Source: Candidatus Harrisonbacteria bacterium (lineage in GTDB: Bacteria; Patescibacteriota; Minisyncoccia; UBA6257; UBA11618). From it: a DNA stretch of 64,000 nucleotides. A model generated the notes under the pieces. The model did not search any database. It saw only the letters and a program-made list of their open reading frames with translations, and had not been told where the DNA came from. The position numbers and the translations under genes are program-made. This document shows, in pieces, positions 24,604 to 46,096 of this stretch (positions within the stretch are counted from its first letter, which is position 1; each line of letters starts with the position of its first letter). The DNA lies in the NCBI GenBank assembly GCA_016867415.1, contig VGJO01000001.1:80052-144051 (forward strand). The letters are read 5' to 3'.

Positions 24604-24723
24604 AAGCGAAGTAATTTTGGAGGGTATTTCGATTTTTCTTGAGAGTACGGGGCGGAGCATGCTAGGAAAGTCTGTGAGCACCGAACGGAACAAAAAATCG
24701 AAATGCACCCAAAAGTACGAGCG
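24604..24723 (+). repeat. copy of dispersed structured intergenic repeat, ending 10 nt before clpB ATG
   Basis: agcgaagtaattttggagggtatttcgattttt...ggagcatgctagg...caaaaaatcgaaatgcacccaaaagtacgagcg, with a compensatory tttcgattt/aaatcgaaa pair. Confidence 0.6.
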
Positions 24724-24733
24724 TAAAACACTA

Positions 24734-27391
24734 ATGAAACAGTTTAATAGGTTCACAATTAAAGCCCAAGAAGCCCTCCAAAATTCCCAAGACCTCGCCT
24801 CTCTTCGCAATCACGGCGAGTTTAAAGCCGTTCATCTTCTTCATAGTTTAATTCAGGATTCTCAATCCCTCGTTCAGCCAATGCTTGTGAAAGTCAGCGT
24901 TAATCTTGATCAACTTTTCGAAGAGCTTGAAGCTGAATTGGGTCGCATGCCCAAAATTTTTTCTGGTGGCAATACTGGCCAACTCTATCTCTCCCAAGAA
25001 ATTATTCAGATTCTCGATCGGGCCGGTAAAATCGCTCTCGCTCAAAAAGATGAGTTTGTGAGCTGCGAGCACCTTCTTTTGAGTATCCTCGATACCCGTT
25101 CGAGCGCGAAGGAAATCTTAGAGTCTTTCGGAGTGAAGCGCGATCCGCTTATTCGCGTTTTAGAAAAACTTCGCGGCTCTAATCGAGTCGTCGACGAGAC
25201 TCCTGAGAGTAAATTTCAGGTACTTGAAAAGTATGGCATCAATCTTACCGAGCGGGCCAAACAAGGAAAGCTTGATCCGGTCATCGGTCGCGACGATGAA
25301 GTTCGGCGCTTGATTCAAGTGCTTTCCCGCCGCACGAAAAATAATCCAGTCTTAATCGGCGAACCTGGTGTGGGAAAGACTGCGATAATCGAAGGCTTAG
25401 CCCAACGCATTATCTCCGGAGATGTTCCTGAAACACTTCGCGCGAAAGAAATTATTTCGCTGGATCTTGGCGCTCTTATTGCTGGCACGAAATTTCGCGG
25501 TGAATTTGAAGATCGGCTTAAGGCTTTTATGAAGGAGATTAAAAACAGCGATGGCCGCTTCATTCTTTTTATCGATGAGCTTCACATGATCGTCGGTGCC
25601 GGTGCCGCCGAAGGTGCCATCGACGCTTCCAATCTTTTAAAACCTTCTCTTGCTCGAGGTGAACTTCGCGCTATTGGTGCTACTACACTCCGGGAATATC
25701 AGAAACATATTGAAAAAGACCCTGCCCTGGAGCGCCGCTTCCAGCCTATCTTGGTAGAAGAGCCTTCTATTGAGGATGCGCTCGCTATTCTTCGTGGTCT
25801 TAAAGAAAAATATGAAATTCATCATGGTATTCGGATCAGTGATGAAGCCTTAGTTGCCTCGGTCAATCTTTCTGCTCGCTACATTACTGATCGTTTTCTC
25901 CCTGATAAGGCCGTAGATCTGATGGATGAAGCCGCTGCCGCTCGGCGTCTTGAATCCGAAAGTATTCCTCGTGAAATAGATCGCTTCCGTCGGGATATTA
26001 TGCGTCTCGAGATCGAGCAAAAAGCCTTGGAAAAAGAGCAGGAGGAAGTCTCCGGTACTGGTAAAGTAAAAGTAAAAAAGCGATTAGAAGAGATTAAGAG
26101 TGAGCTTTCCGCTCTTAAGGAAAAAAATGATGGCCTCTCTGCTAAGTGGCATAAGGAAAAGATCGCCTTTGAAAATCTTCACAAGCTTCGCCGGCGCGAG
26201 GATGATCTTCGCCGCGAAGCCGAAATTGCCGAACGTGATGGTAATCTCACTCGGGTCGCCGAGATCCTTTATGGCGAGCTTCCCGCCGCTCAAAAAGAAT
26301 ACAAAGATTTTGAAAAGAAATACTTCTCAAAAGGGAAGGCTACTAGTACCTCTGAAAAATTTCTCAAAGACGCTGTTGATGAGGAAGATGTGGCTGCGGT
26401 TGTTTCTCGTTGGACCGGAATCCCCGTTTCTCGCATGCTTGAGTCCGAAGCCGTTAAGCTCACTCGCCTTGAGGACGTCCTAAGTAAGCGCGTAGTGGGT
26501 CAGGAGACTGCTGTGACAGCCGTCGCTAATGCCCTCCGCCGGTCTCGAGCAGGCCTTGCTGATATGAGTCGTCCCCTTGGATCCTTTATGTTCTTAGGAC
26601 CTACCGGTGTTGGCAAGACGGAGCTTGCCAAAGCTTTGGCCGAATTCATGTTTAATGACGAAAAAGCCTTGATCCGCATTGATATGTCTGAATACATGGA
26701 GCGTCACGCCGTCTCTCGCCTTATTGGTTCGCCTCCTGGGTATGTTGGTCATGATGAAGGAGGGCAGCTCACTGAGATTATTCGTCATCGTCCCTATAGC
26801 ATCATTCTTTTCGATGAGATTGAGAAAGCTCATCCTGAAGTCTTTAATATTCTCTTGCAGGCTCTTGATAATGGCCGTCTCACCGACAGTAAGGGTAAGA
26901 CCGTCAATCTTAAAAACTGCGTAATTATTTTGACTAGCAACGTTGGGAGTCATCATTTTAAGGAGATTTCCCGCCTTGGCTTCAAGACCGAAGAAGGGGA
27001 AAATCTCGAAGCTAAGGAAAAAGATTTTCGTTCTCGCGTCATGGACGCTTTGAAGGATCAATTCCGTCCCGAGTTCTTAAATCGGCTCGACGAAATAATC
27101 ACCTTCAACGCCTTAAATCGCAATGTGATCGAAAAAATAGTTGAGATTCAACTCGAGAAGGTAAAAGAGCGGCTTGCCGAGCGAAGTATCCGGCTTAAGA
27201 TTGATGATTCTGCCAAAAAGTATATTGTCGAGCATGGTTTTGATCCTGATTATGGTGTCCGTCCGATTAAGCGCTTGATTCAAAAAGTGATTCTTGATCC
27301 GATGGCCGACAAGATTATAAAAGGCGAATTGAAAGACGGCGATGAAGCGAAGGTTAGCTTTAAGAAGTCCTTACTTACTGTTAGCGTGTAA
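24734..27391 (+). CDS. clpB: chaperone ClpB (AAA+ disaggregase)
   Basis: N-domain [15 protein letters not shown], two Walker A boxes ([16 protein letters not shown]), middle coiled-coil. The ORF-track start at 24617 is a read-through of the repeat. Confidence 0.88.
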
Positions 27392-29163: not shown

Positions 29164-31035
29164 TCAGATGGATAGGTCGGGTCGGAGTAATTGCAACTTA
29201 CTCCTCAATCTTCCCAATTCCTTCTGATCCCCCTCCTCCATCGCAATCCGTGCCTGAATCTGGATAAATTCAATGCGAGTAGGCGAATAATCTTCCCCTG
29301 TTTTAGCAAGTGCTTTTGCTTTCTCACTATATTGCGGATTTTTTGTCGCTTCAAATGCCGCCATGTAGAGCAAGTTGTATATATAGTGATTTTTTATACC
29401 TGGATAGATCGTGGGCTCATACCATTTGTCCGCCATCCCTAGTACTCGGTTCATGAAGTTAGGATCTCGAGGAAGCGCCGGGTTTTCCTTTTGAGCCATT
29501 TGAATCGCATTTTGCAAAAAGAGGAAGAGACTACTTTCTAGCTCTGACTGCCCTACTACCGACTTATATTGCAATGCCTTCTCATAGTCATTCAGCGCTT
29601 GGTCTAAATTTTTCGCATTATAGACCGCCGATGTGATAAGGAGGACATTTTTTCGATAAATAGTGTAAGTGAGACCAAATCCAGTAAGGAGTAATAAGAC
29701 AATGACTGCCTGCCCTCCTGCTCGCGTAAAAGTTAGTTGTTTTCTTTGCGTCATAAGCTTAGAAAGAGCTGTTTCCTCAAGAAAGCCGGCGGTGTTTGCT
29801 GTGTAAAAAGCCAGGAAGAGAAAAAGCATGAGATACGTTGGCAAGATGGCAAAGATAGTCAGTCCCTGGATGATAAACATAAGCGGCATGATAAGAAAAA
29901 TAATCCGCCATATTCCCGAAGGAATCTTTTTTAAGCTCATATAGTAGGCGATAAAGATTCCAATATAAGCAAGAAGGAGAAGGATTCCCCCATTCATTAA
30001 TTCGTCAATAAAGATATTATGAGCCCGATCAAACCATGACTCTCTTCCAAAGTGATTGGGATTATAATACATATCAAAGACCGAAGGGAAACTCTCCGCT
30101 CCATACCCCAAAAGTGGTCGTTCTAAAAATCCTTGGTACGCTGATCCCCAGGTCCAAAAACGAGTATTAAATGCTTCTAGAATATTTCCTCCCTTTTCTG
30201 CTGAAACAAGAAAAAGTGAGCCAAAAGTAATAAAGCTAATAAGAAGGACTAAAAACGCATAGAAAAAAGTCTTTGCTTTTTTATTAAGCTTCTCGAAGTA
30301 ATAGAGATGAAGGTGGGGGATGAGAAGCAAGAGTCCGACTACGCCGCCAATTCCCACTGCCCCCAAAGCCGCTGTCGTCTTTGATCGGTAAAAAACGAAG
30401 ATCGCCCAAAGAGTGTACCAGGCAAGCATAGTCCAGGTTTTCACCGATTTTGTATTCTGACTCATCCAATAAAGGTAAAAGAAGATAAATATCATATAGC
30501 CTCCAAGATACGAGGCATTTCCTAATGTTCCTGCTACCTGTGAGGCACTTCCAATGAAAAAACTAGGTGCTATACCGAAAGCCTGCGCGGTCGCATAGAG
30601 CATCACATAGAGAGTCTCAATAAGGAGAAATGAGATGAGCCATTTCCAATGCTGTTTCGTTGTATAGGTGGAGATAAGAAGCACGTAAAAAGTCACATAG
30701 TGAATGATTTGAAATCCCCCTTCCGCCCGTTCAAAGTTAGACCAAAAAGAAAAACCTGGGTTGATTCCAGTAAGTGAAGTAAGGACATAAAAAAATGCAT
30801 ATGCAAGAACTGCGATCGAGACCGGATGCCTCAACCGTTCTTTGATGACTGTCCAGTACCCCGGATTATAAATGAGATAACTCAAGAGGCAAAAAAGGGC
30901 GATTTCCACCATCGATCGGAAATAGAGCGCCTTTCCGGTAATAAAGGGGAAGTACAAACCTCGGGTAACAAGGAGAAATGAAAGAAGTGCCGCCCCGGTA
31001 AAAATCCGCGCCGCTCTGATAAAAAAAGTATTCAT
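29164..31035 (-). CDS. Wzy_C (O-antigen ligase/PglL-like) polytopic membrane protein with C-terminal TPR-like domain
   Basis: About 11 TM segments, YNPNHFGRESWFDRAHNIFIDELMNGGILLLLAY loop motif typical of the Wzy_C family. C-terminal soluble helical repeats. Confidence 0.7.
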   Translation of the reverse strand: MNTFFIRAARIFTGAALLSFLLVTRGLYFPFITGKALYFRSMVEIALFCLLSYLIYNPGYWTVIKERLRHPVSIAVLAYAFFYVLTSLTGINPGFSFWSNFERAEGGFQIIHYVTFYVLLISTYTTKQHWKWLISFLLIETLYVMLYATAQAFGIAPSFFIGSASQVAGTLGNASYLGGYMIFIFFYLYWMSQNTKSVKTWTMLAWYTLWAIFVFYRSKTTAALGAVGIGGVVGLLLLIPHLHLYYFEKLNKKAKTFFYAFLVLLISFITFGSLFLVSAEKGGNILEAFNTRFWTWGSAYQGFLERPLLGYGAESFPSVFDMYYNPNHFGRESWFDRAHNIFIDELMNGGILLLLAYIGIFIAYYMSLKKIPSGIWRIIFLIMPLMFIIQGLTIFAILPTYLMLFLFLAFYTANTAGFLEETALSKLMTQRKQLTFTRAGGQAVIVLLLLTGFGLTYTIYRKNVLLITSAVYNAKNLDQALNDYEKALQYKSVVGQSELESSLFLFLQNAIQMAQKENPALPRDPNFMNRVLGMADKWYEPTIYPGIKNHYIYNLLYMAAFEATKNPQYSEKAKALAKTGEDYSPTRIEFIQIQARIAMEEGDQKELGRLRSKLQLLRPDLSI

Positions 31036-31145
31036 AAAGAAGTTCTATTTATTGTATCGTCCCTTATCTATTTTCTCAAAGACACGAGGTAGTAATTATG
31101 TAAATATTTGCAAACTTATTGCTATCTATTATACTTCTCACCGCT

Positions 31146-31964
31146 ATGATTACCCCTCACATTTCTGGAAAAGATGCCGCCTTCCGCCTTCTCCGAGCCT
31201 CTCTTCATGTTCGCCGCTCCGAGCTCCGCATTCGTCTTGAGTATTGGGTTTTTGAACTCCTCGAATCCTGTGCTGTGGGCGATAGAGACCGTATTGCTCG
31301 CTCCCTTTCTGTTGCCTCTGAGCTTATTGCCTTTGCCGAACAAATAAATGAGCTTGATCCTATTTCTTACCAGGAGTTAATTTCCTCACTGGAAGGAATA
31401 GAAGAAAAGTGGAAGGATATGAAAGAATTAAAAAAAGAGGATATTTCAGAAAATTTCCCTATTAGGCAAAATACGGCAAAAGAAGAAAATATAAATACGG
31501 CAATAAGGCAAAAAAAGGAAATTTTAGAAAATAATACGGCAATATACGGCAATAATTCTTATAAAAAAGAAAAAGAAGTATCTTCAAATTCAACGGAAAA
31601 GGAAGTTGAAAAAGAATCCCGTGGTTTTAGTCATCTCTTAAGTGGAGAAACCTTCTCTTCTGAAGACCCTCGTTCTTCTTATCTCGATGAAGCCCCTATT
31701 ATATCTTCTTCAGAAACCATAAAAAACTCTGAAAGAGAAGAAGATCTTGATAATAACAGTCCTCGGACAATCATGCGCCAAAGCGCCATTCTTCGCAGAG
31801 TTCGGGAAAGTGGTGGATTAGGCTGCCGCTTAAAGGAGTTAATTGAGGAATTTCCCCAGGTTTCCGAGCGTACTCTTCGCTACGATCTCGAACGCCTGAT
31901 TAATCAAGGTCATATTATTCGCGTAGGTCAAGGCCCAGTCTCCACCTATCTTAGTAAGTCTTAA
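31146..31964 (+). CDS. hypothetical protein with C-terminal winged-helix/HTH-like domain; internal 10-nt DNA tandem repeats
   Basis: C-terminus LRRVRESGGLGCRLKELIEEFPQVSERTLRYDLERLINQGHIIRV resembles a DeoR/HTH_11-type wHTH. DNA aatacggcaa repeated 4 times. Start uncertain (TTG 31119 or ATG 31146). Confidence 0.4.
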   Translation: MITPHISGKDAAFRLLRASLHVRRSELRIRLEYWVFELLESCAVGDRDRIARSLSVASELIAFAEQINELDPISYQELISSLEGIEEKWKDMKELKKEDISENFPIRQNTAKEENINTAIRQKKEILENNTAIYGNNSYKKEKEVSSNSTEKEVEKESRGFSHLLSGETFSSEDPRSSYLDEAPIISSSETIKNSEREEDLDNNSPRTIMRQSAILRRVRESGGLGCRLKELIEEFPQVSERTLRYDLERLINQGHIIRVGQGPVSTYLSKS

Positions 31965-35904: not shown

Positions 35905-35934
35905 AAAAATCCCCCTCCCGGGGGATTTTTGTTT
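35905..35934 (+). terminator. intrinsic terminator
   Basis: aaaaatccccc tccc gggggattttt: 7-bp stem with A/T flanks. Confidence 0.75.
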
Positions 35935-36021: not shown

Positions 36022-36197
36022 CACGCGAAGTAATTTTGGATGGAGTTTGTGATTTCTTTCCGAGGAGCCGCCGCAACGTATAAATAAAAGGTATGTCGAA
36101 GGTACTTAGTACTCTAATACCGGAGATCTCGAGTACTCTCGAGGTGAAGAAGCTAGCACAGAAAAAACTGCGAAAATTCGCCAAAAAACAAGCTTAT
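36022..36197 (+). repeat. long variant (with internal insertion) of dispersed structured repeat, ending 3 nt before GT4 start
   Basis: ccacgcgaagtaattttggatggagtttgtgatttc... + insertion ggtacttagtactctaatacc / ctcgagtactctcgag + ...gaaaaaactgcgaaaattcgccaaaaaacaagctt. Confidence 0.6.
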
Positions 36198-36200
36198 ACC

Positions 36201-37385
36201 ATGAATAAAAAGATGAGTAAAAAAGTTTTATTAATAATTACGCAACCCACCTGGGGCGGCGCCCAACGCCATGTCTTTGATCTCGCTCTTGGCCTAAAAG
36301 AGGAAGGTTTCAAGGTGGTGGTAGGGACAGGGAAACCCAAGTCTTCTGCTAAAGAAGACTCTCTTCTCATCGAAAAGTTAAGAGAAAAAGAAATCACCAC
36401 TCAAATCTTTTCTCATCTCACCCGTCCTATTAGACCCCTTTCAGACATTCGCGCTATTTTCGAAATCTTTTCTTTCCTCCAAAAAAATAAAATAAATATT
36501 CTCCATCTCCATAGTTCGAAGGCCGGGGTGGTGGGAGCGGTGGCCGGCTTTCTTGCTCGCACCCCTCGCCGTCTTTTTACCGCTCACGGCTTAGTGCTGA
36601 ATGAGCCTCTTCCCCGGTATCTTCATGGTCTCTATTACATCCTTGAATGGATTAGCTTCCGCCTCTCGCATCACATCATTACCGTCTCTGATTTCGACCG
36701 TCATATTGCGCTAAAAAGTCGTCTCACTTCTCCTCTTAAAATCTCCACAATCTGGAACGGCATTGATCAAAAAGTATTTACCTCTTCACTCTTACCTAAA
36801 GAGACTGCTCGAAGAAAAATTCTCTCTCTCTTTCCCCACTCCATAGATGAAAAAAACTTCATTATCGGAACCATCGCTCATTTCTACAAGAATAAGGGCC
36901 TCTCTTTTTTAGTTTCCGCGGCCGAGATCGTGGTAAAAAGTTTCCCGCAAGCCCACTTTGTCATTATAGGGAGTGAAGGTTCGGAGCGCGCTTCTATTGA
37001 GCAAAAAATAAAAGAGTGCTCACTTGAAAAAAACATTCACTTGCTAGGTTTCATAGAAAATCCCGAATCATTATTAAATAGTTTTGACCTCTATGTTTCC
37101 TCATCTCTCAAAGAAGGCCTTCCATACTCCTTAATCTCAGCTCTTTCTGCGGAAGTACCAATAGTGGCTACTCAGGTTGGTGGCTGTTCTGAAATTATTA
37201 TTAATGAAGAAAATGGACTCCTTGTCCCTCCTGCCGACGCACCTGTTCTTGCTTCTGCTATTAGCCGCTTCCTAATCTCTCCTCACCTAAAAGAAAAAAC
37301 AAGAGAAAATAATAAAGTCCGCTCCTCGCTCTTCTCCCTTTTTGAAATGATTGATAAAACTATCGCAATCTACGATAATCGCTAG
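36201..37385 (+). CDS. glycosyltransferase family 4 (GT-B)
   Basis: EGLPYSLISALSAEVPIVATQVGGCSEII..ENGLLV (E-x7-E motif region). The ORF-track N-extension from 36093 is translated repeat sequence. Confidence 0.8.
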   Translation: MNKKMSKKVLLIITQPTWGGAQRHVFDLALGLKEEGFKVVVGTGKPKSSAKEDSLLIEKLREKEITTQIFSHLTRPIRPLSDIRAIFEIFSFLQKNKINILHLHSSKAGVVGAVAGFLARTPRRLFTAHGLVLNEPLPRYLHGLYYILEWISFRLSHHIITVSDFDRHIALKSRLTSPLKISTIWNGIDQKVFTSSLLPKETARRKILSLFPHSIDEKNFIIGTIAHFYKNKGLSFLVSAAEIVVKSFPQAHFVIIGSEGSERASIEQKIKECSLEKNIHLLGFIENPESLLNSFDLYVSSSLKEGLPYSLISALSAEVPIVATQVGGCSEIIINEENGLLVPPADAPVLASAISRFLISPHLKEKTRENNKVRSSLFSLFEMIDKTIAIYDNR

Positions 37386-37389: not shown

Positions 37390-39531
37390 ATGCTCTCTAA
37401 AACAATAAAAATTCTTCTATTTCTGACCGCTCTCACTCCTCTTATCTGGTCTTCGTATTTTATTTTTCCTTACGTTTCGGCAAAGATGTTCTTTTTTCGG
37501 GGACTTATCGAGATCGCTACTCTTCTCGCTCTTATTCAAAGCATAAGTGATGAAAATCTGCGCCAAAAAGCAAAAAAGATTTTTCGCAATCCACTCTTTC
37601 TTTCCCTGTTATCCTTTCTCATTATTAGCGGAATTGCGAGCATCTTTTCGGTAAATCCTTCCATTGCTTTTTTTGGTAATCTAGAACGTGGCGAGGGTTT
37701 TATTAGTCTGGTCCACTACCTCATCTTTTTCTTTCTCCTCTGCGTATTTTTCGAAGATCGTGATTTTCTTGGATTTCTTATTAGTTCCTTCTGGGTTGGC
37801 ATCGGTGTGACGTTTTTAGGCTTTTTTCAAAGATTAGGTCTGGATAACCTTCCGTTTGTCCCGCCGTATAAACCTGATTTTGATTCCACTTTAGGGAATA
37901 GAGCTTATGTAGCGGGTTATAGTCTTTTCCTTATCGGTTCTTCTCTTTTCTTATTTTTAGAAAAGAATACTCGCTCTTTCATGAGATATTGGTACGGCGG
38001 GGGAATTATTCTATTCTCTATTCTTCTCTTACTTACTAATAATAGAGGTTCTCTCGTCGCTCTTTTTGTATCTCTTCTTATTACTTTAGGTATTATTGCT
38101 TTTCATTCCTCTTCCCTTGTCGCCCGACGGGCGAAAATTGCTGGTATCTGTCTTGTTCTTTTTGGACTTTGTTTTTTTATTACTCGTTCTTTTCCGATAT
38201 GGCAGTACATTCCCGGACTTTCTCGTGTGGCTAATATTAGTCTCTCAGATGCTACGATGCGCACTCGCTACCTTTCTCTCATCTCTTCTCTCAATGCTTT
38301 TAAAGAGAAGCCATTATTAGGTTGGGGGAATGATCATTTCATCACTGCTTATAATAAATATTACGAACCAAGCTATGCCAGGTTTGAAAATTCCTGGTTT
38401 GATCGCGCTCATAATAAACTCGCCGAGATATTGGTAGAAACCGGCCTTATTGGTCTTCTCGCCTACTTAAGCATTTTTCTCTTTGTTTTTCTTTTTCTTC
38501 GGAAAGAAGGATTACGCAAAGAAACATTAATACTAGGAAGTATTTTTATTGCTTATTTTTTGCAAAATCTTTTTCTTTTTGATCACCCGACAAGTTATCT
38601 TCTTTTCTACTTCTTTCTTGCGTTTCTCATTATTCGAAGTAAAGAAGAAGTAAAAAATATTCCTTCCTCTCAACCTCTCTCATTCTCTTTTATTCCCCTT
38701 GGAGGCCTTGTAATATATCTCCCCCTTCTTCTCTACTGTTTTACATATCTTGAGGCAAAGCCGATCAAAGCTGCCTATGCCGCAAACATGCTTTCCCAAA
38801 AAGACTCTCTTTGGAATGAAAAGCCGGAGTTAATAAATATGGTAATAACTGGCTCTAGTTTTTCTAAAATAGATACGCATCGCTTTCTTATGGGCTTTAT
38901 AAATAGCCGAGGTTTGTTTATGAATAAAGCTTGGCAATCTAAACTTTTCCCATTTCTCCATTCATATGAGGGTTTAGTAATAGATAATAAGTACGACCCC
39001 CGAATAAATATTAGTCTCTCCGATGCCTATGAAGACCTGGGAGAAAAAGATCCCGGCTTTCTTGATAAAAAGCTCCAGGTTTTGGAATCAGCTCTCCCAC
39101 TTGCCCCGCGTCGCCAAGATCTTTTTTATGAGCTCGCTTTTGCTCATTCTCTAAAAAAAGAAAACGAAAAAGCGATAGAGATTGCCCGCTCCGCCATCGC
39201 ACTTGATCCCGAAGTCGCCCGCGCTCACTATGTGTTAAGCGCCATTCTTTATCTTGCGAAGGCTGATAAAGAAGAGAGTATCAGGGAGCTTGCACTTACT
39301 TTCGAGTACCCTGGCGCTTTCTTAAGTAGCCAGGACCAAGAAAATATAAAAAACATTCTCATCACCTACCTTGCTAATTCGGTAAAGAGTCGAGATGAAA
39401 AAGGTGTGACAAGCACGGCAACTCTCCTAAAAAAAGTCATCCCGGAAAAAATAGGAGAGTTCGATCAAATCATCGCTCTTGGCAAAGCTCATAACTGGTA
39501 CGCCCTGGAATATGGCCTTGATATCAAGTGA
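37390..39531 (+). CDS. Wzy_C (O-antigen ligase/PglL-like) polytopic membrane protein with C-terminal TPR-like domain (paralog of 29164-31035)
   Basis: YYEPSYARFENSWFDRAHNKLAEILVETGLIGLLAY motif, about 12 TM segments, C-terminal helical repeat region. Confidence 0.7.
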   Translation: MLSKTIKILLFLTALTPLIWSSYFIFPYVSAKMFFFRGLIEIATLLALIQSISDENLRQKAKKIFRNPLFLSLLSFLIISGIASIFSVNPSIAFFGNLERGEGFISLVHYLIFFFLLCVFFEDRDFLGFLISSFWVGIGVTFLGFFQRLGLDNLPFVPPYKPDFDSTLGNRAYVAGYSLFLIGSSLFLFLEKNTRSFMRYWYGGGIILFSILLLLTNNRGSLVALFVSLLITLGIIAFHSSSLVARRAKIAGICLVLFGLCFFITRSFPIWQYIPGLSRVANISLSDATMRTRYLSLISSLNAFKEKPLLGWGNDHFITAYNKYYEPSYARFENSWFDRAHNKLAEILVETGLIGLLAYLSIFLFVFLFLRKEGLRKETLILGSIFIAYFLQNLFLFDHPTSYLLFYFFLAFLIIRSKEEVKNIPSSQPLSFSFIPLGGLVIYLPLLLYCFTYLEAKPIKAAYAANMLSQKDSLWNEKPELINMVITGSSFSKIDTHRFLMGFINSRGLFMNKAWQSKLFPFLHSYEGLVIDNKYDPRINISLSDAYEDLGEKDPGFLDKKLQVLESALPLAPRRQDLFYELAFAHSLKKENEKAIEIARSAIALDPEVARAHYVLSAILYLAKADKEESIRELALTFEYPGAFLSSQDQENIKNILITYLANSVKSRDEKGVTSTATLLKKVIPEKIGEFDQIIALGKAHNWYALEYGLDIK

Positions 39532-39608: not shown

Positions 39609-40754
39609 ATGGAATCTTCAGTTAAAAAAATACTAATTGCCTCAGGTATTTTTTCGCCTGAAATTGGAGGTCCCGCTACCTTCTCAAAAATCATTCTCAA
39701 TGAATATCAAAAAAGTGAGAAAATAGATCCAATTGTTCTCTCCTACTTCCTTCCTCATCATGCATCCCAAGATTCGCGTGTTTTTAGTGTTTCCAAATCT
39801 TTGCCAAAAGGCCTTCGCCATCTCATCTATTTTTACAAATGCTTATTTCTCTCTCGAAGGCGAAAACTAGTCCTTGCCCTCGATCCAGTCTCTGCCGGCT
39901 TACCCGCCCTTCTCTCCTCTTTCTTTATGGGAAATAAGTTTCTCGTTCGCATCGCCGGTGACTATGCCTGGGAAGAAGGCTCTCGTCGCTTTGGCGTGAC
40001 AGATACGCTCGATGATTTTCAAAAAAAATCCTATGGCCTTCGAGTCGAGTGGCTCCGCTCCGTCCAGAAATATGTGGCCAAGAAAGCTGAGAAAATAATC
40101 GTTCCCAGTGAGTATCTAAAAAAAATACTAGTGACCGGATGGGGGATAGGGCCGGAAAAAATCATCATAATCTACAACGCTGTTGATTTTCCTGATGCGC
40201 CCGTAGAAAAATCCCTTTCCGTTTCTCCTGCCTTCTCTCTTTTTTCTGCCGGTCGCCTTGTCTCCTGGAAGGGTTTCGACAGCTTATTAGATCTTATGCA
40301 TGAACTCCCCTCGACTATCACACTCGCGATCGCCGGCGATGGGCCGGAAGAACAATCTTTAAGAAAAAAAATAATTGATCTAGATCTTACCTCTCGGATC
40401 ACTCTCCTCGGCCGCCTAGAGAAAAAAGACTTAGTAAATAGATTAAAAGCCGCTGATCTCTTTATTTTGAATACTAAGTATGAAGGCTTTTCTCACCAAA
40501 TTCTCGAGAGTCTTGCCCTCGGCGTCCCGGTAATTACTACAAATATCGGTGGCAATCCCGAGCTTGTAAAAGAGGGTGAAAATGGTTTTCTCGTCGCGCC
40601 CGATGATATGCTTGGCTTTAAAAAAGCTATAGAAAAAATAAGCACTGATAAGTCTCTCTACGCTCACCTTAGCAAGAATGCTTTGCAAGTCCGCCACCTT
40701 TTCTCAAAAAATCGCCTCATTACTGATTTTGAAAATTTGATAAAAAACATATGA
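39609..40754 (+). CDS. glycosyltransferase family 4
   Basis: EGFSHQILESLALGVPVITTNIGGNPELVKEGENGFLV. Confidence 0.8.
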   Translation: MESSVKKILIASGIFSPEIGGPATFSKIILNEYQKSEKIDPIVLSYFLPHHASQDSRVFSVSKSLPKGLRHLIYFYKCLFLSRRRKLVLALDPVSAGLPALLSSFFMGNKFLVRIAGDYAWEEGSRRFGVTDTLDDFQKKSYGLRVEWLRSVQKYVAKKAEKIIVPSEYLKKILVTGWGIGPEKIIIIYNAVDFPDAPVEKSLSVSPAFSLFSAGRLVSWKGFDSLLDLMHELPSTITLAIAGDGPEEQSLRKKIIDLDLTSRITLLGRLEKKDLVNRLKAADLFILNTKYEGFSHQILESLALGVPVITTNIGGNPELVKEGENGFLVAPDDMLGFKKAIEKISTDKSLYAHLSKNALQVRHLFSKNRLITDFENLIKNI

Positions 40755-41890
40755 AAGTTCTAATGATATCAATTGACAAGGGGATTTTAGATCGAAATAC
40801 TCCAGCGGGAAAAAGAATGAAAGAATATTCCGAGCTTTTCGACGAGCTTGTGATTATTGTTTTTGCAAAAAAAGGAAAAGGGAGTGGTTACGAAAATGGC
40901 AGGCTAAAAGTTTTTTCTTCTGATTCTCTTTCTAAAGTTTTTTATTTCTGGGACGCTTGGAAAATAATCCGTCGCCTGCGAATAAATAAAGATTGGGTTA
41001 TCACCTCCCAAGACCCCTACGAGACCGGTCTCTTCGCGCTCCTTGTGAAGTGGTGGTATAAGGTTCCGCTTGAGATGCAGATCCACGTCGATATCTTCTC
41101 TCCGTATTTCAAACATTTGAGTTTTCGCAACCGATTTCGCGCCTGGCTTGCAAAGCAGACCCTTCCGTTTGCTACTCGCGTCCGCGCCGTCGCCTCTCGG
41201 GTCAAGCAATCAATTATCGATCAAAAGCTTCTCCTGCCAGAAAAAATCACCGTCATTCCCGTCCCGACTAATAACGAAGAGATACGAAAAAAATCCTCCG
41301 CCTTTTCCCTCAAAGAAAAATACCCAGGGTTCGCGCATTACTTTCTCATCGTCTCCCGCCTCGCTCCCGAAAAAAACATCCCGCTTGCGATTGAGGCCTT
41401 TGCCGAAGTCATCCAAAAATATCCCGAAGCCTTTCTTCTCATTGTTGGCAAAGGAAGTGAGGAGAATTCTTTAAAAAAGTTAGTTTTTCGCTTGAAATTG
41501 GAAAAAAACATTTGCTTTGAGTCCTGGACCTCTGATCCTTTTTCCTACATGAAGACCGCCGACATTTTCCTTCTCCCTTCCCTCTACGAAGGCTGGGGCC
41601 TCTCTGCCATTGAGTCTCTCGCCTGCGGCCTCCCTATCATTATGACCGACGTCGGCTGTGCTGGTGAGGTAGTGCGAGATGGCAAAAATGGCCTCATTGT
41701 TCCGGTGGCGGACAAAATAGCTCTCCAAAAAGCTATGGAAAAAGTAATAAAAGATTCCTCCCTCCTTTCCTCCCTCAAAGCCGGCACTCATGCCACTGAT
41801 TTTTCTCGTATAGAGAAGCCAGAGATTCTAAAAGCCCTGAAAGAAAATCTGGAGAAAACCGCCGCCTCTTTCCTCTTCCATAAATCATAA
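40751..41890 (+). CDS. glycosyltransferase family 4
   Basis: EGWGLSAIESLACGLPIIMTDVGCAGEVVRDGKNGLIV. 4-nt overlap with the upstream gene (operon). Confidence 0.8.
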   Translation: MKVLMISIDKGILDRNTPAGKRMKEYSELFDELVIIVFAKKGKGSGYENGRLKVFSSDSLSKVFYFWDAWKIIRRLRINKDWVITSQDPYETGLFALLVKWWYKVPLEMQIHVDIFSPYFKHLSFRNRFRAWLAKQTLPFATRVRAVASRVKQSIIDQKLLLPEKITVIPVPTNNEEIRKKSSAFSLKEKYPGFAHYFLIVSRLAPEKNIPLAIEAFAEVIQKYPEAFLLIVGKGSEENSLKKLVFRLKLEKNICFESWTSDPFSYMKTADIFLLPSLYEGWGLSAIESLACGLPIIMTDVGCAGEVVRDGKNGLIVPVADKIALQKAMEKVIKDSSLLSSLKAGTHATDFSRIEKPEILKALKENLEKTAASFLFHKS

Positions 41891-41912
41891 AAAAATTGTA
41901 TAATATGGAGAA

Positions 41913-44021
41913 ATGCGCGTTCTCGTCTTTTCTACCGATGATTTTCTTCCTCCCGCTGGTGGCGCCGAGCTTGCTTTAGGTGAGATTATCCGCCATCTTC
42001 CCGAAGTTCAGTTTGAAGTCATCTCTGCCAAAATCCACCGAGGTCCTCGCCCCACAAATATCCCAAAAAACGTCACTATCCGTCACATTGGCTGGGGATT
42101 TTGGCCTCTCCTCGACAAACTTCTACTCGTTCTTTTAGGGCCCTCTATAGCCTATAAAAGCCATAAGAAAGCCCCTTTTGATCTAGTCTGGTCCATGATG
42201 GCCTCCTATAGTGCTTTTGCTGCCCGAATCTTCAAAAAGAAGGCTAAAACCCCCTATCTTCTCACCCTGCAGGAGGGAGATCCGATTACTCGGCCCCTAT
42301 ACCGCATTTTGAAGCGCTTAGGGCTCTTTGGACCGCTTTTTTCCGATGCCAACGCCCTCCAACCTATCTCTCATTTTCTCTCTCGCTGGGGTCATTTTAT
42401 GGGCTTTAAAGGGCCTGTAGAGGCTATCATTCCCAATGGCGTTGATACTGATCATTTTTCGAGAGAAATCTCCGCCGCCGAGCGGGAGAAGCACCGCTCC
42501 TCTTTTGGTTTTCCTCCTGATGCCCTCATTCTCATTTCCGTCTCCCGCTTTGTCGCCAAAAATGGCCTTGCGGACATCATTCGCGCTCTCCCTCTTCTTC
42601 CCGAAAAAGTTTGTCTTGTTCTCTGCGGTTTTGGTGATCTAGATCAATCACTCCGCGATCTTGTCGCGCGTCTAGATCTTGAGCATCGTGTTCACTTTTT
42701 TGGTTCTTGTTCTCACACTCATCTTCCCGCCGTCCTTTCCGCCACCGATATCTTCATTCGCCCGTCTTTGAGTGAAGGGCTAGGTAATTCTTTTCTCGAA
42801 GCCATGGCCTGCAGCCTGCCAGTAATTGGCACTAAAGTAGGTGGCATCCCGGATTTTCTTGAGGATGGAAAGACTGGTTTTTTTTGTCTTCCCGAAAATC
42901 CCGAAAGCATAAAAGACACAGTACTAAAAATAATAAACTCCAATCCTGCTCGTCTTACCGAAATAAAAAAATCCGCCAAAGATTTGGTTATCAAAAAATA
43001 CAATTGGCGCTTGATAAGCAGTGGGATGAAGAATCTTTTCGAAAAGACGCAAGCGATTACCCCTCTCTGTCTAGAAAAACCTCTCTTCATCCTCTCGCTC
43101 GACGTCGAGCTTGCCTGGGGTATGAAGGGTTCAAAAAGATTTTTCCACCAATACGAAAAAAAGCGGGAAGTAGTCGATAAGCTTCTACAGCTTTTTGAAA
43201 AGTACGACATCCCCGCCACCTGGGCGGTGGTTGGGCATCTCTTTCTTGATAGCTGCGCCCCCGTCTCGGGCGTGAAGCATCCAGAAATTATTCGACCAAA
43301 AAAAGAGGGTACGAATGACTGGTTTGAAATTGATCCCTGTACCTCTATTACCACTCACCCTTTTTGGTATGGCAAAGATATTGTGGGAAAAATCATTAAG
43401 TCAGAAAAGCAAGAGCTCGCCTGCCATACCTTCTCGCATGTATACATGGATTTCCCCTCTCTTACCAAAGACTGGTTTGAAAGTGAATTAGCGGAATGTC
43501 AGCGGCTTGCCAAAGATCATGGCCGATCTCTAACTTCTTTTATCTTTCCGCAAAACAAAATCCGTTTTGTAGATAGTCTCGCCCCCCATGGCTTCACCGC
43601 TTACCGCGCTCCTGATGACAATTGGTATAGTTCTTTAAGAGGACTCCTGAAGCGTATCGCTCATGTGATTGATGATTATTTGTGCTTGCCTGTTCGTTCC
43701 GTCCTCCCTTATAAAGACAATGATCTCATCGCCATCCCCGGCAGTTATTTCTACGTCCATAAAGTCGGCTGGGCGCGTTTTCTCCCCGTCTCCTTTCGAG
43801 TAAAAAAAGCCAAGTGGGGGATAGATGATGCAATAGAGACCGGTAAAATATTTCACCTCTGGACTCACCCTTTTAATCTCACGGATAAAGATGGTAAGCT
43901 CCTTGCCGGTCTCGAAGAAATCCTGCGCTACGTCGCCGAAAAAAGACGACAAGGAAAAATCTCTATTACCTCTATGAACAAAGTTAATAATTTTTTAAAA
44001 AATAATGAAAACTCTAAGTAG
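41913..44021 (+). CDS. bifunctional GT4 glycosyltransferase (N-terminal) / polysaccharide deacetylase, NodB-like (C-terminal) fusion
   Basis: N-terminal half: EGLGNSFLEAMACSLPVIGTKVGGIPDFLEDGKTGF. C-terminal half: LDVELAWG, ATWAVVGHLF, CHTFSH His motif of NodB-type deacetylases. Confidence 0.7.
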   Translation: MRVLVFSTDDFLPPAGGAELALGEIIRHLPEVQFEVISAKIHRGPRPTNIPKNVTIRHIGWGFWPLLDKLLLVLLGPSIAYKSHKKAPFDLVWSMMASYSAFAARIFKKKAKTPYLLTLQEGDPITRPLYRILKRLGLFGPLFSDANALQPISHFLSRWGHFMGFKGPVEAIIPNGVDTDHFSREISAAEREKHRSSFGFPPDALILISVSRFVAKNGLADIIRALPLLPEKVCLVLCGFGDLDQSLRDLVARLDLEHRVHFFGSCSHTHLPAVLSATDIFIRPSLSEGLGNSFLEAMACSLPVIGTKVGGIPDFLEDGKTGFFCLPENPESIKDTVLKIINSNPARLTEIKKSAKDLVIKKYNWRLISSGMKNLFEKTQAITPLCLEKPLFILSLDVELAWGMKGSKRFFHQYEKKREVVDKLLQLFEKYDIPATWAVVGHLFLDSCAPVSGVKHPEIIRPKKEGTNDWFEIDPCTSITTHPFWYGKDIVGKIIKSEKQELACHTFSHVYMDFPSLTKDWFESELAECQRLAKDHGRSLTSFIFPQNKIRFVDSLAPHGFTAYRAPDDNWYSSLRGLLKRIAHVIDDYLCLPVRSVLPYKDNDLIAIPGSYFYVHKVGWARFLPVSFRVKKAKWGIDDAIETGKIFHLWTHPFNLTDKDGKLLAGLEEILRYVAEKRRQGKISITSMNKVNNFLKNNENSK

Positions 44022-44025
44022 TGCA

Positions 44026-44148
44026 AAGCGAAGTAATTTTGGATGGAGTTTGCGATTTCTTTTCGAGGACAAGCCCGGAGCATACTGGGCTCAAGTATGT
44101 GAGGACTTACCGGAGAAAAAAATCGCAAAATTCGCCAAAAGTACGAGC
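44026..44148 (+). repeat. canonical copy of dispersed structured intergenic repeat, ending 11 nt before ATP-grasp gene ATG
   Basis: gcgaagtaattttggatggagtttgcgatttcttttcgaggacaagcccggagcatact gggctca agtatgtgaggacttaccggagaaaaaaatcgcaaaattcgccaaaagtacgagc. Confidence 0.65.
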
Positions 44149-44159
44149 ATAAATAATAT

Positions 44160-45320
44160 ATGACTTGTCTAATTCTCGACGCTCATCTTCATAGCGCTCT
44201 TTCTACCGTTCGATCTTTGGGTAAAAAAAATAGTAAGATTTTTTCTGCTTCTGACACCCGGCTCGCCCCCAGCTTTTTTTCCCGCTACTCAGTAAAAAAT
44301 TTTCTCTACCCTTCTCCTCTCAAAGATGAATCTGCTTTTATAAAAAAAATAACTTCCATTCTAGAAAGTCTTAAGGACGATTGTCTTATATATATTTTCA
44401 GCGAGACTACTCTTTTGCCTCTTTCCCGAAACAGGAATAAACTGCCAAAAAATACCCGTCTTATTCTCGGCTCTCTCGAAAATGTCGAGCTCGCCTCCGA
44501 CAAAGCCGCTACTCTCACTCTTGCGGCAGAAAATAATATCCCCATTCCCCAAACTTTCTTTCCCGGTTCTTTCGCTGAAGCTCAAAACTTTCTCTCCAAA
44601 ATTCCCTACCCCTGCATTGTGAAGCCTCGCCATAACTGCGTCTGGAAAGATGGTGCCTCTGTCTATGAGACCGCCCATCTTGTCGAGACGAAAGAAGAGG
44701 CGGAAAAAATCTGGCGGGAACTTTTTAATGCTTCCGGTGAACCGCCCCTTATTCAAGAAAGAGTAGTTGGTGAAGAGCGAGGAATCTTCACCTTCGCAGT
44801 AAAAGGGGAGGGCTTTGCTTGGTTTGCGCATAAGCGGCTTGAGTCTTTAAAGAAGTTAGGTGGCGCAAGTATCCTCCGAGAAAGCATAGAAGTAGATCCT
44901 AAGCTTAAAAGTTATTCTGAATTACTTATAAAAAAACTTGATTGGACCGGCCCTCTTATGATTGAGTGGAAGTGGGATGAAAATGCTAAGAGGTATCTCC
45001 TCATGGAGATCAATGCCCGTTTCTGGGGTTCTCTGCCGCTTGCTGTTGCCTCAGGGGTAGACTATCCCGCACTCATGCTTGATTTCGCAGTCGGACAATC
45101 GCTTCCTAATGAAGTTACTTATAAGATTAGTATCCGTTCCCGCCATTTCTTTGGCGCTCTAAGAAGTCTCCTTCGAGCAAAGACGTGGAGAGATTTTCAG
45201 AAGCTCTGGCAAATAATGTGGGGGGAAAAAACGATTGATGATGTTTTCTCTTTCTCCGATCCCCTCCCTTTTCTTGGAGAAGTTCTATTTATTGGTAAAA
45301 CATTTATATGGAAAAAATAA
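44160..45320 (+). CDS. ATP-grasp superfamily ligase
   Basis: CIVKPRHNCVWKDGASVY, GEERGIFTFAVKG, LMIEWKWDE..YLLMEINARFWGS. Characteristic ATP-grasp B/C subdomain motifs. Confidence 0.65.
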   Translation: MTCLILDAHLHSALSTVRSLGKKNSKIFSASDTRLAPSFFSRYSVKNFLYPSPLKDESAFIKKITSILESLKDDCLIYIFSETTLLPLSRNRNKLPKNTRLILGSLENVELASDKAATLTLAAENNIPIPQTFFPGSFAEAQNFLSKIPYPCIVKPRHNCVWKDGASVYETAHLVETKEEAEKIWRELFNASGEPPLIQERVVGEERGIFTFAVKGEGFAWFAHKRLESLKKLGGASILRESIEVDPKLKSYSELLIKKLDWTGPLMIEWKWDENAKRYLLMEINARFWGSLPLAVASGVDYPALMLDFAVGQSLPNEVTYKISIRSRHFFGALRSLLRAKTWRDFQKLWQIMWGEKTIDDVFSFSDPLPFLGEVLFIGKTFIWKK

Positions 45321-46096
45321 TTGGCGTCGCTCACATCCACTCCCGCTTTTCCTATGATGGCAAGCTCTCTTTGCCTGAGCTAAAATCACTTTTTCAAAAA
45401 AACAATCTTCGCTTTGCTTTAGTCTCCGAGCACGAAGATGATTTTGATGAGAAAAAATGGATTGCTTTAGTAGAGGAGTGCCAAAAGCTAAGCGATGATA
45501 GTTTTCTTTTCATCCCTGGTCTGGAGATAAACTACGCTGGCGGTCACGTCCTCTGCTTTGGCCTCAATCAGCCAATCTCTTATATGAAAGGGATAGAGAC
45601 TTTAAAAGAAGCAAATAAAGCCGGCGCACTCATTGTGTTTGCGCACCCTCATCGCAGTAGATATAGAGTAGGGGAGGAGCTTCAGCAAATAATAAACGGC
45701 GTTGAAATCTGGAATTCGCACTATGATGGCAAATGGTCGCCTCGATTTCTTTCATATAAACTCTGGCAAAAAGTAAACAGAGAGGATAAAAAAATCTTCG
45801 CCTTTGCCGGCCTCGATTTTCATGATCTTCATCATCTCCACGGGCCACGACTAGAAGTAGCATCTTCTTTTTCGATAGAGGCAATTCTTAAAGCGCTTAT
45901 ATCGGGAAGCTTTGTGATTAAAAAAGATGAAAAAATAATCTCCGCTTTTCCCGATCTTAATATGTTTCCTCTTTTTATAAAAAGTTTCCTCTCTCTTTGC
46001 ATTCTCGGTGGTTATAAATTCGCTGGCAATATATTCTCCTTTTTCCCAAAAAGTTGGAAGAGAAAGATAAAACTATCCTTAAGAAAAAATCTTTAA
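45308..46096 (+). CDS. PHP-family metal-dependent phosphoesterase (CpsB-like)
   Basis: GVAHIHSRFSYDG N-terminal His motif, VSEHED, FAHPHR. Size about 260 aa, as for PHP tyrosine phosphatases. Overlaps the upstream gene by 13 nt. Confidence 0.55.
   Translation: MEKIIGVAHIHSRFSYDGKLSLPELKSLFQKNNLRFALVSEHEDDFDEKKWIALVEECQKLSDDSFLFIPGLEINYAGGHVLCFGLNQPISYMKGIETLKEANKAGALIVFAHPHRSRYRVGEELQQIINGVEIWNSHYDGKWSPRFLSYKLWQKVNREDKKIFAFAGLDFHDLHHLHGPRLEVASSFSIEAILKALISGSFVIKKDEKIISAFPDLNMFPLFIKSFLSLCILGGYKFAGNIFSFFPKSWKRKIKLSLRKNL

Follow-up and report, generated by a model that had tools for sequence, protein, structure and literature searches.

Organization of the locus

What may be the role of two related membrane proteins encoded on either side of a surface-protein gene in Candidatus Harrisonbacteria, an uncultivated bacterium of very small size from the Candidate Phyla Radiation (CPR)? 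The genes were analysed within a window of 64 kb, the whole stretch of DNA under study. The most likely answer is that both proteins, here called A and B, attach sugars to the surface protein, since the enzyme pair and the surface-protein gene recur together in many distant relatives.

A first-pass annotation had placed two paralogous genes, oppositely oriented, around a gene for a Thr/Ser-rich surface protein. Both reading frames were recovered, and the arrangement holds (Table 1). Between A and B reside the genes for a DeoR-type HTH protein, for a 1145-aa surface protein, the putative acceptor, denoted by the working name SURF, and for a GT4 glycosyltransferase. The ATG of B at 37390 is found 4 nt past the stop codon of the GT4 gene (37383-37385). 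A and B are indeed paralogues, with 27% identity along a 361-aa stretch of their membrane domains (BLASTP, E 4e-30).

SURF carries, in this order, a signal peptide, a short coiled coil, a PG_binding_1-like domain (residues 75-166), a disordered TTPTPTPTP linker (residues 168-181) and an array of Ig-like beta-sandwiches. The protein is acidic and Cys-free, and its richness in hydroxylated residues is evident by comparison with the remaining proteins of the window (24.3% Ser+Thr versus 9-17%). Composition and anchoring modules are consistent with an S-layer protein. The assignment is putative, as the fold search retrieved generic Ig-like/MG-domain arrays only, and no S-layer-specific relative. 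A terminator-like GC hairpin directly follows the SURF stop codon; a promoter scan was uninformative (14 sites versus 14.5 expected).

Table 1. Features of the locus and their position in the window
Feature	Coordinates	Strand	Remarks
ClpB	24617..27391	plus	conserved flank
8-TM protein, 243 aa	27342..28073	plus	conserved flank
Gene A, 623 aa	29164..31035	minus	membrane protein of the Wzy_C superfamily, fused to a helical-repeat tail
A, residues 477-623	29167..29607	minus	all-helical TPR-like tail
A, residues 436-470	29626..29730	minus	13th transmembrane helix, predicted to put the tail outside the membrane (model helices, hydropathy)
A, residues 1-416	29788..31035	minus	12-helix WaaL-like core
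DeoR-type HTH protein	31119..31964	plus	candidate regulator
SURF, 1145 aa	32427..35864	plus	putative acceptor
Terminator-like GC hairpin	35910..35924		bidirectional, with T-runs; consensus match only
GT4 glycosyltransferase	36093..37385	plus	between the SURF gene and B
Gene B, 713 aa	37390..39531	plus	Wzy_C + TPR protein; start given as 37351/37390
B, residues 449-713	38734..39528	plus	predicted external tail
Glycan assembly cluster	39609..63438		~25 kb
Wzx-type flippase	53466..54722	minus	Polysacc_synt

Fold and topology of A and B

A Wzy_C domain had been assigned to both proteins. The assignment is correct for B by Pfam standards (PF04932, 68.5 bits, gathering score 31.7), whereas A has no Pfam or NCBIfam match at E<=0.01, and none in Pfam even at E<=10. 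Searching the PDB with the A sequence by itself returned nothing useful. Since such searches were uninformative, A was placed by means of B, of homologues and of a structure model; homology to B and to more than 700 Wzy_C-annotated relatives, along with the predicted fold, makes A a member of the Wzy_C superfamily. The model features a WaaL-like polytopic fold, in which a 12-helix core is followed by a helix (residues 436-470) and by a helical domain (residues 477-617). By analogy with the topology of PglS, the 13th helix would leave the tail on the extracytoplasmic side, and the K/R-rich loop which precedes it fits the cytoplasmic side according to hydropathy. On the basis of homology, 13 transmembrane helices and an extracytoplasmic C-terminal domain are predicted for B as well.

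The description of both tails as TPR-like holds to a different extent. TPRs in the B tail are detectable by Pfam and PDB searches, the canonical ones at residues ~554-637, whereas the A tail is TPR-like by fold only. The A tail, marked by the conserved motifs S.VGQ.E, APTR.EF and LRPDL, is homologous to the proximal part of the B tail (residues ~456-609) at the profile level only (hhalign 97.4%, E 1e-11), and BLAST found no match between the two tails. The B tail runs ~100 residues past the point where A ends.

The best structural match of the A model is WaaL from Cupriavidus metallidurans (PDB 7TPG/7TPJ; 16% identity), and family members, where named at the source, are called O-antigen ligases in every case. 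Taken at face value, match and names would make A and B classical ligases joining O-antigen to lipid A-core, which we regard as very improbable. WaaL has 12 transmembrane helices, and its solved structure is a chain of 403 residues which, unlike A, has neither a 13th helix nor an external tail domain. The host belongs to the CPR, a group in which a monoderm envelope has been described for the few cells examined. According to the first-pass annotation, a lipid A-core pathway with A and B as its only WaaL candidates would speak against protein glycosylation; within the 64-kb window, genes for lipid A, the core, Lpt proteins or a Kdo-transferase were not found. In one parcubacterium, lpxC/kdsA and the genes for LPS synthesis are reported to be missing (PMC5220378). 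Lipid A-core, the acceptor of WaaL, is not expected in Candidatus Harrisonbacteria either. O-antigen ligase is a misleading annotation in organisms devoid of LPS.

Catalytic signature

The loop motifs ESWFDRAHN and NSWFDRAHN occur, as noted earlier, in A and B, respectively; the ExxxxGxxG spacing described along with them is inexact in both proteins. The core of A displays the family-invariant external motifs FWSNFER(A/G)EG, GTLGN.SYLGGY, R292, P307xxG310xG312 and D336-R337-x-H339. The signature of B is complete, and includes R219, R293, P308xxG311xG313, D338-R339-x-H341 and D398. The WaaL-type motif, H[NSQ]x9Gxx[GTY], is exact in B, and is found in A at all but the last position, which is Leu. 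PglL-specific Pfam models (PglL_A and Wzy_C_2) matched neither B at E<=0.01 nor A at E<=10.

The conservation of single residues was evaluated in an alignment of 220 relatives, comprising 198 bare and long relatives and 22 A-type orthologues. The catalytic His (H338 in E. coli WaaL, H349 in N. meningitidis PglL, H313 in C. metallidurans WaaL) corresponds to H339 in A and H341 in B, and is present in all 220 sequences. Arg-beta (R288, R298 and R265 in the same proteins) corresponds to R292 in A and R293 in B; one relative has Lys, the other 219 Arg. At the Arg-alpha position (R215, R224 and R191) B has R219, A a Thr (Thr221, codon ACA). This Arg is found in 214/220 relatives, that is in all 198 bare and long sequences and in 16 of the 22 A-type orthologues. 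Asp or Glu occupies a further position in 218/220 relatives, the other two being gapped there; the residue is D398 in B, Ala396 in A. D398 lies 57 residues past H341, and is likened to PglL E404 and PglS E379 by spacing alone. The catalytic His and Arg residues, whose alignment had been proposed as a check, are thus all present in B, whereas A misses one Arg, and also the acidic residue. The loss of two signature residues (Thr221, Ala396) suggests that the activity of A is probably altered or reduced in this genome. For the same reason, the O-oligosaccharyltransferase reading fits B much better than A.

Distribution among Paceibacteria

Dozens of Paceibacteria share, with 25-40% identity, a block including the genes for ClpB, in some cases DeoR-HTH, a 1100-aa PG-binding Ig-array surface protein, a B-type and an A-type protein. 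Both paralogues are linked to the surface-protein gene across deeply diverged members of the group. SURF to B adjacency was observed at 23 loci and SURF to A-like adjacency at 13, the window being additional to both; loci were retrieved via A-family patterns, and the frequencies refer to a biased genome sample. In many relatives, too, the DeoR-HTH gene immediately precedes the one for the surface protein, and the genes for ClpB and the 8-TM protein accompany A-type genes. SURF homologues were detected with profile HMMs, as single-sequence phmmer missed the diverged ones. The wall-binding modules of these proteins are either PG_binding_1 or SLH. The A family itself is large, its profile retrieving at E<=1e-30 ~3,900 clusters at 50% identity.

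In relatives, the A-type gene is usually found directly downstream of B. In the window genome it is inverted and fused to its tail, which in most lineages is a separate, translationally coupled gene of ~200 aa. A is therefore a gene fusion in the window; split and fused tails both occur in the A lineage. Most A-type proteins of relatives retain the full catalytic set, and are probably either second transferases, dedicated to another glycan or class of sites, or partners of B.

The linkage is not universal. No Wzy_C gene lies up to 8 kb away from two distant homologues of SURF, and an 847-aa unannotated gene residing beside an SLH-type SURF (locus L084), considered as a hidden Wzy_C, fails to match the Wzy profile.

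The glycan cluster and alternative roles

The cluster downstream of B encodes five GT4 glycosyltransferases, one of which is fused to a deacetylase, a GT2 enzyme, ATP-grasp, sulfotransferase and deacetylase proteins, two AsnB-like amidotransferases, methyltransferases, a KpsF/GutQ isomerase and a 4,6-dehydratase/epimerase. The Wzx-type flippase implies a lipid-linked glycan, turned by it to the outside of the membrane, the side on which A and B would act. No initiating phosphoglycosyltransferase was found in the window.

Given that the window hosts a Wzx but, besides A and B, no polytopic Wzy candidate, either protein could be the polymerase of a Wzx/Wzy-dependent surface polysaccharide, the tail serving as a chain-length or scaffold module. 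In variants of this hypothesis A-type proteins polymerise and B-type proteins ligate, or each polymerises a different polymer. A 474-aa ORF (56557-57981) was considered as the missing polymerase, and was discarded, having one hydrophobic segment and no Wzy-profile, Pfam or NCBIfam match. The position of B within a large glycosyltransferase cluster is in keeping with a polymerase, as are additional Wzy_C genes at the distal end of a glycan cluster (L087) and a B-type gene lying in a sugar cluster which lacks SURF (L088). The tight coupling of B to A-like genes would suit a polymerase and ligase pair. Wzy O-antigen and capsule polymerases share the Pfam superfamily of A and B, which spans polymerases and ligases that sequence alone cannot separate, and likewise co-occur with flippase and glycosyltransferase genes. 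Yet, the literature consulted, which includes PMC2943079, reports for polymerases neither linkage to a specific secreted-protein gene nor a TPR tail on the outside. At one locus (L086) SURF and Wzy_C genes are linked even without adjacent glycosyltransferase genes, the invariant His of the ligase/oligosaccharyltransferase-type motif is kept in A and B, and the nearest solved structure is that of a ligase. Moreover, the window showed none of the Wzz/PCP, tyrosine kinase or LCP genes that Wzy-dependent capsule loci typically contain. On balance, a polymerase role is rather unlikely.

Alternatively, the acceptor to which A and B join the glycan may be no protein, but another constituent of the monoderm envelope, for instance peptidoglycan, a secondary wall polymer or a glycolipid anchor in the membrane. 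According to this hypothesis the polymer would be the matrix lying under the PG-binding SURF, and the genes would be neighbours by virtue of a shared envelope function, and not as enzyme and substrate. WaaL, the closest solved relative, has in fact a glycolipid acceptor, the Firmicutes ligands of PG_binding_1 and SLH modules are wall polymers, and KpsF/GutQ, sulfotransferase and AsnB-like enzymes typically go with polymers that are acidic or decorated. The hypothesis is nonetheless unlikely, and somewhat more so than a polymerase role. An external TPR tail and adjacency to the gene of a specific secreted protein are reported hallmarks of protein O-oligosaccharyltransferases, and in Gram-positive wall assembly LCP enzymes, rather than Wzy_C proteins, normally take care of the attachment to peptidoglycan.

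A model for surface-protein glycosylation

Protein O-glycosylation, the role favoured in the first-pass annotation, may be retained as a proposal, strengthened by the conserved linkage and by the architecture of the proteins. We give about even chances to a specific version, in which B moves an undecaprenyl-PP-linked glycan from the adjacent cluster onto SURF, in a manner similar to S-layer O-glycosylation, and A is a diverged partner or a second transferase. In this monoderm CPR bacterium, the locus would serve as a module akin to those for S-layer glycosylation. In the cytoplasm, the glycosyltransferases of the cluster would load a polyprenyl-pyrophosphate carrier with an oligosaccharide, and Wzx would flip the lipid-linked product across the membrane. 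On the outer face, the glycan would be passed en bloc by B, endowed with a WaaL/PglL fold, to SURF, itself secreted and anchored to peptidoglycan. The Ser/Thr hydroxyls which receive it would lie likely in the disordered Thr-Pro linker, and possibly in the Ig-like domains. His341 may act as the catalytic base, Arg219 and Arg293 may hold the pyrophosphate, and the external TPR tail may capture the acceptor polypeptide or hold it in place. In this model A is the ancient sister paralogue of B.

A more elaborate scheme, which we consider improbable, regards the SURF/B-type/A-type/tail block as the S-layer protein of Paceibacteria with its dedicated glycosylation machinery. B, A and the tail protein would form a hetero-oligomeric transferase, for which the PMT1-PMT2 heterodimer of eukaryotic O-mannosylation offers an analogue. 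The A protein of the window, carrying Thr221 and Ala396, would be a non-catalytic, tail-fused scaffold.

SURF, widely conserved, is a concrete candidate for the main surface protein anchored to the wall of Paceibacteria, and A and B are a candidate enzyme pair for its glycosylation. Fission and fusion of the tail mark the helical domain as an obligate partner of the Wzy_C core. If SURF is glycosylated as proposed, lipid-linked O-glycosylation of surface proteins would reach into a large section of the bacterial tree that is uncultivated. A literature search for O-antigen ligase in combination with Parcubacteria or Candidate Phyla Radiation retrieved no paper, and two preprints, on Lipocone and on the evolution of S-layers, had no bearing on the module.

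Comparison with known systems

Eukaryotic TMTC1-4, O-mannosyltransferases of the GT-C/PMT clan, combine (PMC7801869, PMC11292533) a polytopic transferase using lipid-linked sugars with non-cytoplasmic TPRs, and modify proteins made of tandem beta-sandwich (cadherin) domains, reminiscent of the SURF Ig array. This is an analogy only: the family is unrelated, the donor is a monosaccharide (Dol-P-Man), and the reaction takes place in the eukaryotic ER.

PglL, PglS, TfpO and TfpM of Proteobacteria are among the closest known systems. These are Wzy_C proteins in which a His is essential and Arg residues bind the pyrophosphate, and their genes typically adjoin the acceptor gene, as B adjoins the SURF locus. 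PglL and PglS have 13 transmembrane helices followed by an external C-terminal domain, and an acidic residue ~55 positions past the His, to which D398 in B may correspond. The proteins described here differ in that they match neither PglL_A nor Wzy_C_2, their C-terminal domain is a TPR array, the putative acceptor is no pilin, and A misses Arg-alpha and the acidic residue.

Close counterparts, in terms of architecture and gene context, are WsfB of Paenibacillus alvei and WsaB with WsaA of Geobacillus stearothermophilus, predicted S-layer O-oligosaccharyl:protein transferases of monoderm hosts (PMC2943079). There are differences also in this case. In the CPR host a pair of paralogous enzymes is conserved, the proximal module of the tail is specific to the family, and the acceptor would be a PG_binding_1-anchored Ig-array protein, only putatively an S-layer protein. 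WsfB joins a Wzy_C core and C-terminal TPRs in one protein, as B does, and in Geobacillus a small TPR protein is encoded separately beside the Wzy_C core, like the split tails of the A lineage (PMC2943079). In these systems the transferase gene resides in, or beside, a glycan cluster adjoining the S-layer gene, much as B adjoins SURF and the GT4 gene on one side, and the glycosyltransferase cluster on the other.

Two paralogous genes around a surface-protein gene

The Wzy_C-superfamily membrane protein A and its Wzy_C+TPR paralogue B are encoded, as the first-pass annotation proposed, by real genes set on opposite strands around the gene for SURF, a secreted, putative acceptor protein; their membrane domains share 27% identity over 361 residues (E 4e-30, BLAST). 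The loop motif (E/N)SWFDRAHN is common to both, but the ExxxxGxxG spacing said to follow it is inexact in either protein. The Wzy_C assignment is sound for B, the only one of the pair above the Pfam threshold (68.5 bits), while A found no match in Pfam, NCBIfam or a PDB sequence search. Similarly, a TPR tail can be recognised by sequence in B, not in A. The two tails are not aligned by BLAST; in profile-profile comparison, residues 13-167 of the A tail match residues 8-161 of the B tail (probability 97.4%, E 1e-11, 140 columns), and on these sequence profiles they are homologous, the B tail being ~100 residues longer distally. The GT4 gene upstream ends, stop codon included, 4 nt before the ATG of B.

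Features of the A/SURF/B region and of the glycan cluster
Feature	Position	Strand	Remarks
8-TM protein	27342-28073	+	243 aa, 8 predicted TM segments; overlaps clpB end by 50 nt
TPR_2-containing protein	28140-28835	+	231 aa, between 8-TM protein and A
A	29164-31035	-	ORF, 623 aa
DeoR-type HTH gene	31119-31964	+	between A and B
SURF	32427-35864	+	1145-aa secreted protein, between A and B
GT4 gene	36093-37385	+	between SURF and B
B	37390-39531	+	ORF, 713 aa from ATG; longest ORF opens with TTG at 37351
ATP-grasp enzyme	44160-45320		
Sulfotransferase gene	46101-46958	+	inside glycan cluster
AsnB-like amidotransferase	48938-50770		
Wzx flippase	53466-54722		in glycan cluster
KpsF/GutQ-family arabinose-5-phosphate isomerase	55611-56573	+	256 bits, above NCBIfam cut-off
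AsnB-like amidotransferase	57968-59824		

The 8-TM protein has no match in Pfam or NCBIfam; many relatives (loci L001-L004, L009, L011-L013, L015) encode a counterpart of ~227-282 aa in the interval from ClpB to the A-type gene. The TPR_2 protein carries neither signal peptide nor TM segment, and lacks a counterpart at that position in L001-L003; in L086, a 271-aa faint-TPR protein sits between SURF and the Wzy_C+TPR gene. The DeoR-type gene is directly upstream of the surface-protein gene also in L002, L004, L016, L020, L035, L051, L052, L066 and L085, and, since its position is kept across lineages, is a candidate dedicated regulator. The window copy measures 281 aa from TTG vs ~183-245 aa in most relatives; its true start may thus be further downstream.

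Signature residues

Alignment of B to CmWaaL equates R219 with R191, R293 with R265, and H341 with H313. Schulz et al. equated R215, R288 and H338 of E. coli WaaL with R224, R298 and H349 of N. meningitidis PglL, and listed PglL E404 among the important residues; the His is needed in PglS, TfpM, WaaL and PglL.

Conservation of signature positions, counted over 220 family members
Position	Relatives	B	A
Arg-alpha	198/198 bare and long; 16/22 A-type	R219	Thr221 (ACA)
Arg-beta	219/220 (1 Lys)	R293	R292
Two Gly of PxxGxG	220/220	G311, G313	G310, G312
Asp of D-R-x-H	220/220	D338	D336
Arg of D-R-x-H	216/220	R339	R337
Catalytic His	220/220	H341	H339
Acidic residue 57 after His	218/220 (2 gapped)	D398	Ala396 (GCC)

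The signature is, by alignment, complete in B. The expected catalytic His and Arg positions are therefore all held by B, while A keeps the His and Arg-beta but lacks Arg-alpha, and the acidic residue as well. Alignment is unambiguous at both deviant sites (T-[R/T]-G/A-A..A.G.G and F-[E/A]-I-L-P), and a protein identical to A is found on two further contigs (P0001), making sequencing error an unlikely source of Thr221 and Ala396. With every other invariant motif intact, A is no pseudogene; probably its chemistry has been altered or has weakened.

Family structure and gene order in relatives

A has 732 homologues at E<=1e-3. Those with a source name are all called 'O-antigen ligase', and wherever an organism is named it belongs to a Patescibacteria group. 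They fall into three length classes, bare cores without tail (~450 aa), fused proteins with the A-type tail (~620-640 aa) and long, B-type Wzy_C+TPR proteins (~720-750 aa), and the search with B gave the same pattern. An exhaustive search with the A-family profile yielded 3,925 clusters of 50% identity at E<=1e-30; the profile, tail included, aligned over its full length with many proteins of 715-770 aa. Assigned by score, 62/64 bare and 20/20 fused proteins are A-orthologues, and 25/26 long ones B-orthologues. A and B are thus ancient sister lineages, and in A of the window core and partner (tail) gene are fused.

Around A orthologues of 33-36% identity the gene order is kept: ClpB, a ~230-aa membrane protein and A come first, and (DeoR-HTH), a PG_binding_1 protein and Wzy_C+TPR are encoded divergently. 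Eighty further loci were fetched via A-family patterns and scanned with profile HMMs, and 81 loci were counted after dropping two duplicates. A SURF-family gene is present in 40/81 loci, at least two Wzy-family genes in 27/81 and both in 24/81, figures which are not genome-wide rates, since retrieval went through the A family and multiple paralogues occur in many genomes. In type 1 arrangements, the window included, A is full-length and divergent. Type 2 arrangements are co-directional: ClpB, (DeoR), SURF, a B-type gene (750-860 aa), an A-like bare core (440-520 aa) and a separate gene homologous to the A tail (~200 aa). Median gaps are 107 nt from SURF to B (23 loci), 32 nt from B to the A-like gene (19 loci; several <=3 nt or overlapping) and -4 nt from the latter to the tail gene (54 pairs). 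In two close type-1 relatives (L016 9989-11834, L021 1360-3208) A is a 417-420-aa core plus an overlapping or abutting 196-aa tail ORF, which could reflect true fission or an assembly frameshift.

The arrangement varies further. In the Yonathbacteria locus L086, reached from a distant SURF, the order SURF / TPR protein / Wzy_C+TPR is followed by ribosomal genes, and a GT cluster is absent. On long contigs, two B-type genes are downstream of a large surface protein. In L088, a 719-kb Paceibacterota contig, the B-type gene lies in a heptose-type sugar cluster and SURF is absent. The L088 cluster (1-9000) encodes GT9 heptosyltransferase-family, SIS_2, HAD and cytidylyl/adenylyl-transferase-like proteins; ~6 kb downstream, a bAvd and reverse-transcriptase pair (16821-18219) is typical of a diversity-generating retroelement. 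L087 hosts three Wzy_C-family genes, one B-type after the surface-protein gene, the others, a 446-aa bare core and another Wzy_C+TPR, at the distal end of the glycan cluster (17361-20229); paralogue number is hence variable.

The surface protein

SURF matches at 100% identity a 'peptidoglycan-binding protein' encoded on a 228-kb contig of a Candidatus Harrisonbacteria MAG. In its predicted structure (pLDDT 84.7) the signal peptide is followed by a short coiled coil and a helical PG-binding domain (75-166); after a disordered linker with TTPTPTPTP (168-181), an all-beta array runs up to the C-terminus and resembles in fold searches tandem Ig-like/MG-domain proteins, among them alpha2-macroglobulin, PrgB, integrin legs and AgI/II. 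The protein is acidic, lacks Cys and is 24.3% Ser+Thr. The family is Patescibacteria-wide and steady in size (~1100-1200 aa). Nearly all of the 42 orthologues examined have a low-complexity Thr/Pro/Gly linker, and S+T+P reaches at least 40% in 27. In some homologues (P0304, P0313, P0343; L084 8001-11804) an SLH domain replaces PG_binding_1, the beta-array being otherwise conserved; wall-anchor swaps of this kind are known for S-layer proteins. SURF is plausibly an S-layer protein. One SLH-type and one Nealsonbacteria SURF gene, both distant homologues, have no Wzy_C gene within 8 kb, and a sugar-nucleotide/GT cluster follows each directly.

Glycan cluster and proposed function

Downstream of B, a 25-kb cluster encodes five GT4 proteins (one fused to a deacetylase), a GT2, methyltransferases, a sulfotransferase, ATP-grasp, deacetylase, two AsnB-like, KpsF/GutQ and 4,6-dehydratase/epimerase enzymes, and Wzx. 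The sulfotransferase gene suggests that the surface glycan is sulfated, the AsnB-like and ATP-grasp enzymes that sugars are amidated or amino-acid-decorated. LPS synthesis is not to be expected in this organism, and its KpsF/GutQ gene hints that the surface glycan contains an acidic sugar, Kdo-like or related. GC content is 33-36% in the distal cluster (52000-64000) vs 41-52% elsewhere, the surface-protein gene being the GC-richest (48-51%); S-layer glycosylation clusters have low-GC central regions, read as lateral acquisition (PMC2943079). An initiating phosphoglycosyltransferase was not found within the window.

We give about even chances to a scheme in which cluster enzymes would build an oligosaccharide on polyprenyl-PP, Wzx would flip it, and B would move it onto Ser/Thr of SURF outside the membrane, its TPR tail handling the acceptor; A would be a second transferase or partner, catalytically diverged in this genome. 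That A and/or B are Wzy polymerases is unlikely; the window holds Wzx and no other Wzy candidate, A and B being the only Wzy-core profile matches in it. A 474-aa unannotated ORF (56557-57981) was ruled out as Wzy, not being polytopic. Ligation of the glycan to a non-protein envelope acceptor is decidedly unlikely. The classical WaaL role is most improbable: genes for lipid A, core or Lpt were not found within the 64-kb window. The few CPR cells described are reported as monoderm (PMC8871954), and one Parcubacterium reportedly has no lipid A/LPS genes (PMC5220378).

Comparison with known systems

Taken by themselves, the genes are unremarkable within a very large, already annotated family; new are the conserved module of surface protein and dual Wzy_C, the fission and fusion of core and tail genes, and the loss of two signature residues in A of the window. 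A literature search found no papers linking O-antigen-ligase-type proteins with Parcubacteria/CPR. In the Pfam search A and B did not fall into PglL-specific families, and are thus filed as Wzy_C-superfamily WaaL-fold enzymes, not as PglL family. In monoderm S-layer glycosylation, WsaB and WsfB have Wzy_C; WsfB, like PglL, has a C-terminal TPR, while WsaB lacks it, its gene being directly preceded by that of a 168-aa TPR protein, WsaA (PMC2943079). PglL-type genes lie beside a pilin acceptor gene in 21/31 cases (Schulz et al.). Eukaryotic TMTC1-4 are GT-C transferases with lumenal TPRs and cadherin-domain targets, a functional analogy only. A and B most likely work like S-layer/PglL-type O-oligosaccharyltransferases. 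The module resembles the S-layer systems (WsfB, WsaA+WsaB) in architecture, in the split or fused TPR partner, in the adjoining secreted acceptor candidate, and in the neighbouring glycan cluster with flippase; it differs in having two conserved paralogues and a tail with a family-specific proximal module (S.VGQ.E ... APTR.EF ... LRPDL), in acceptor type, and in its CPR hosts.
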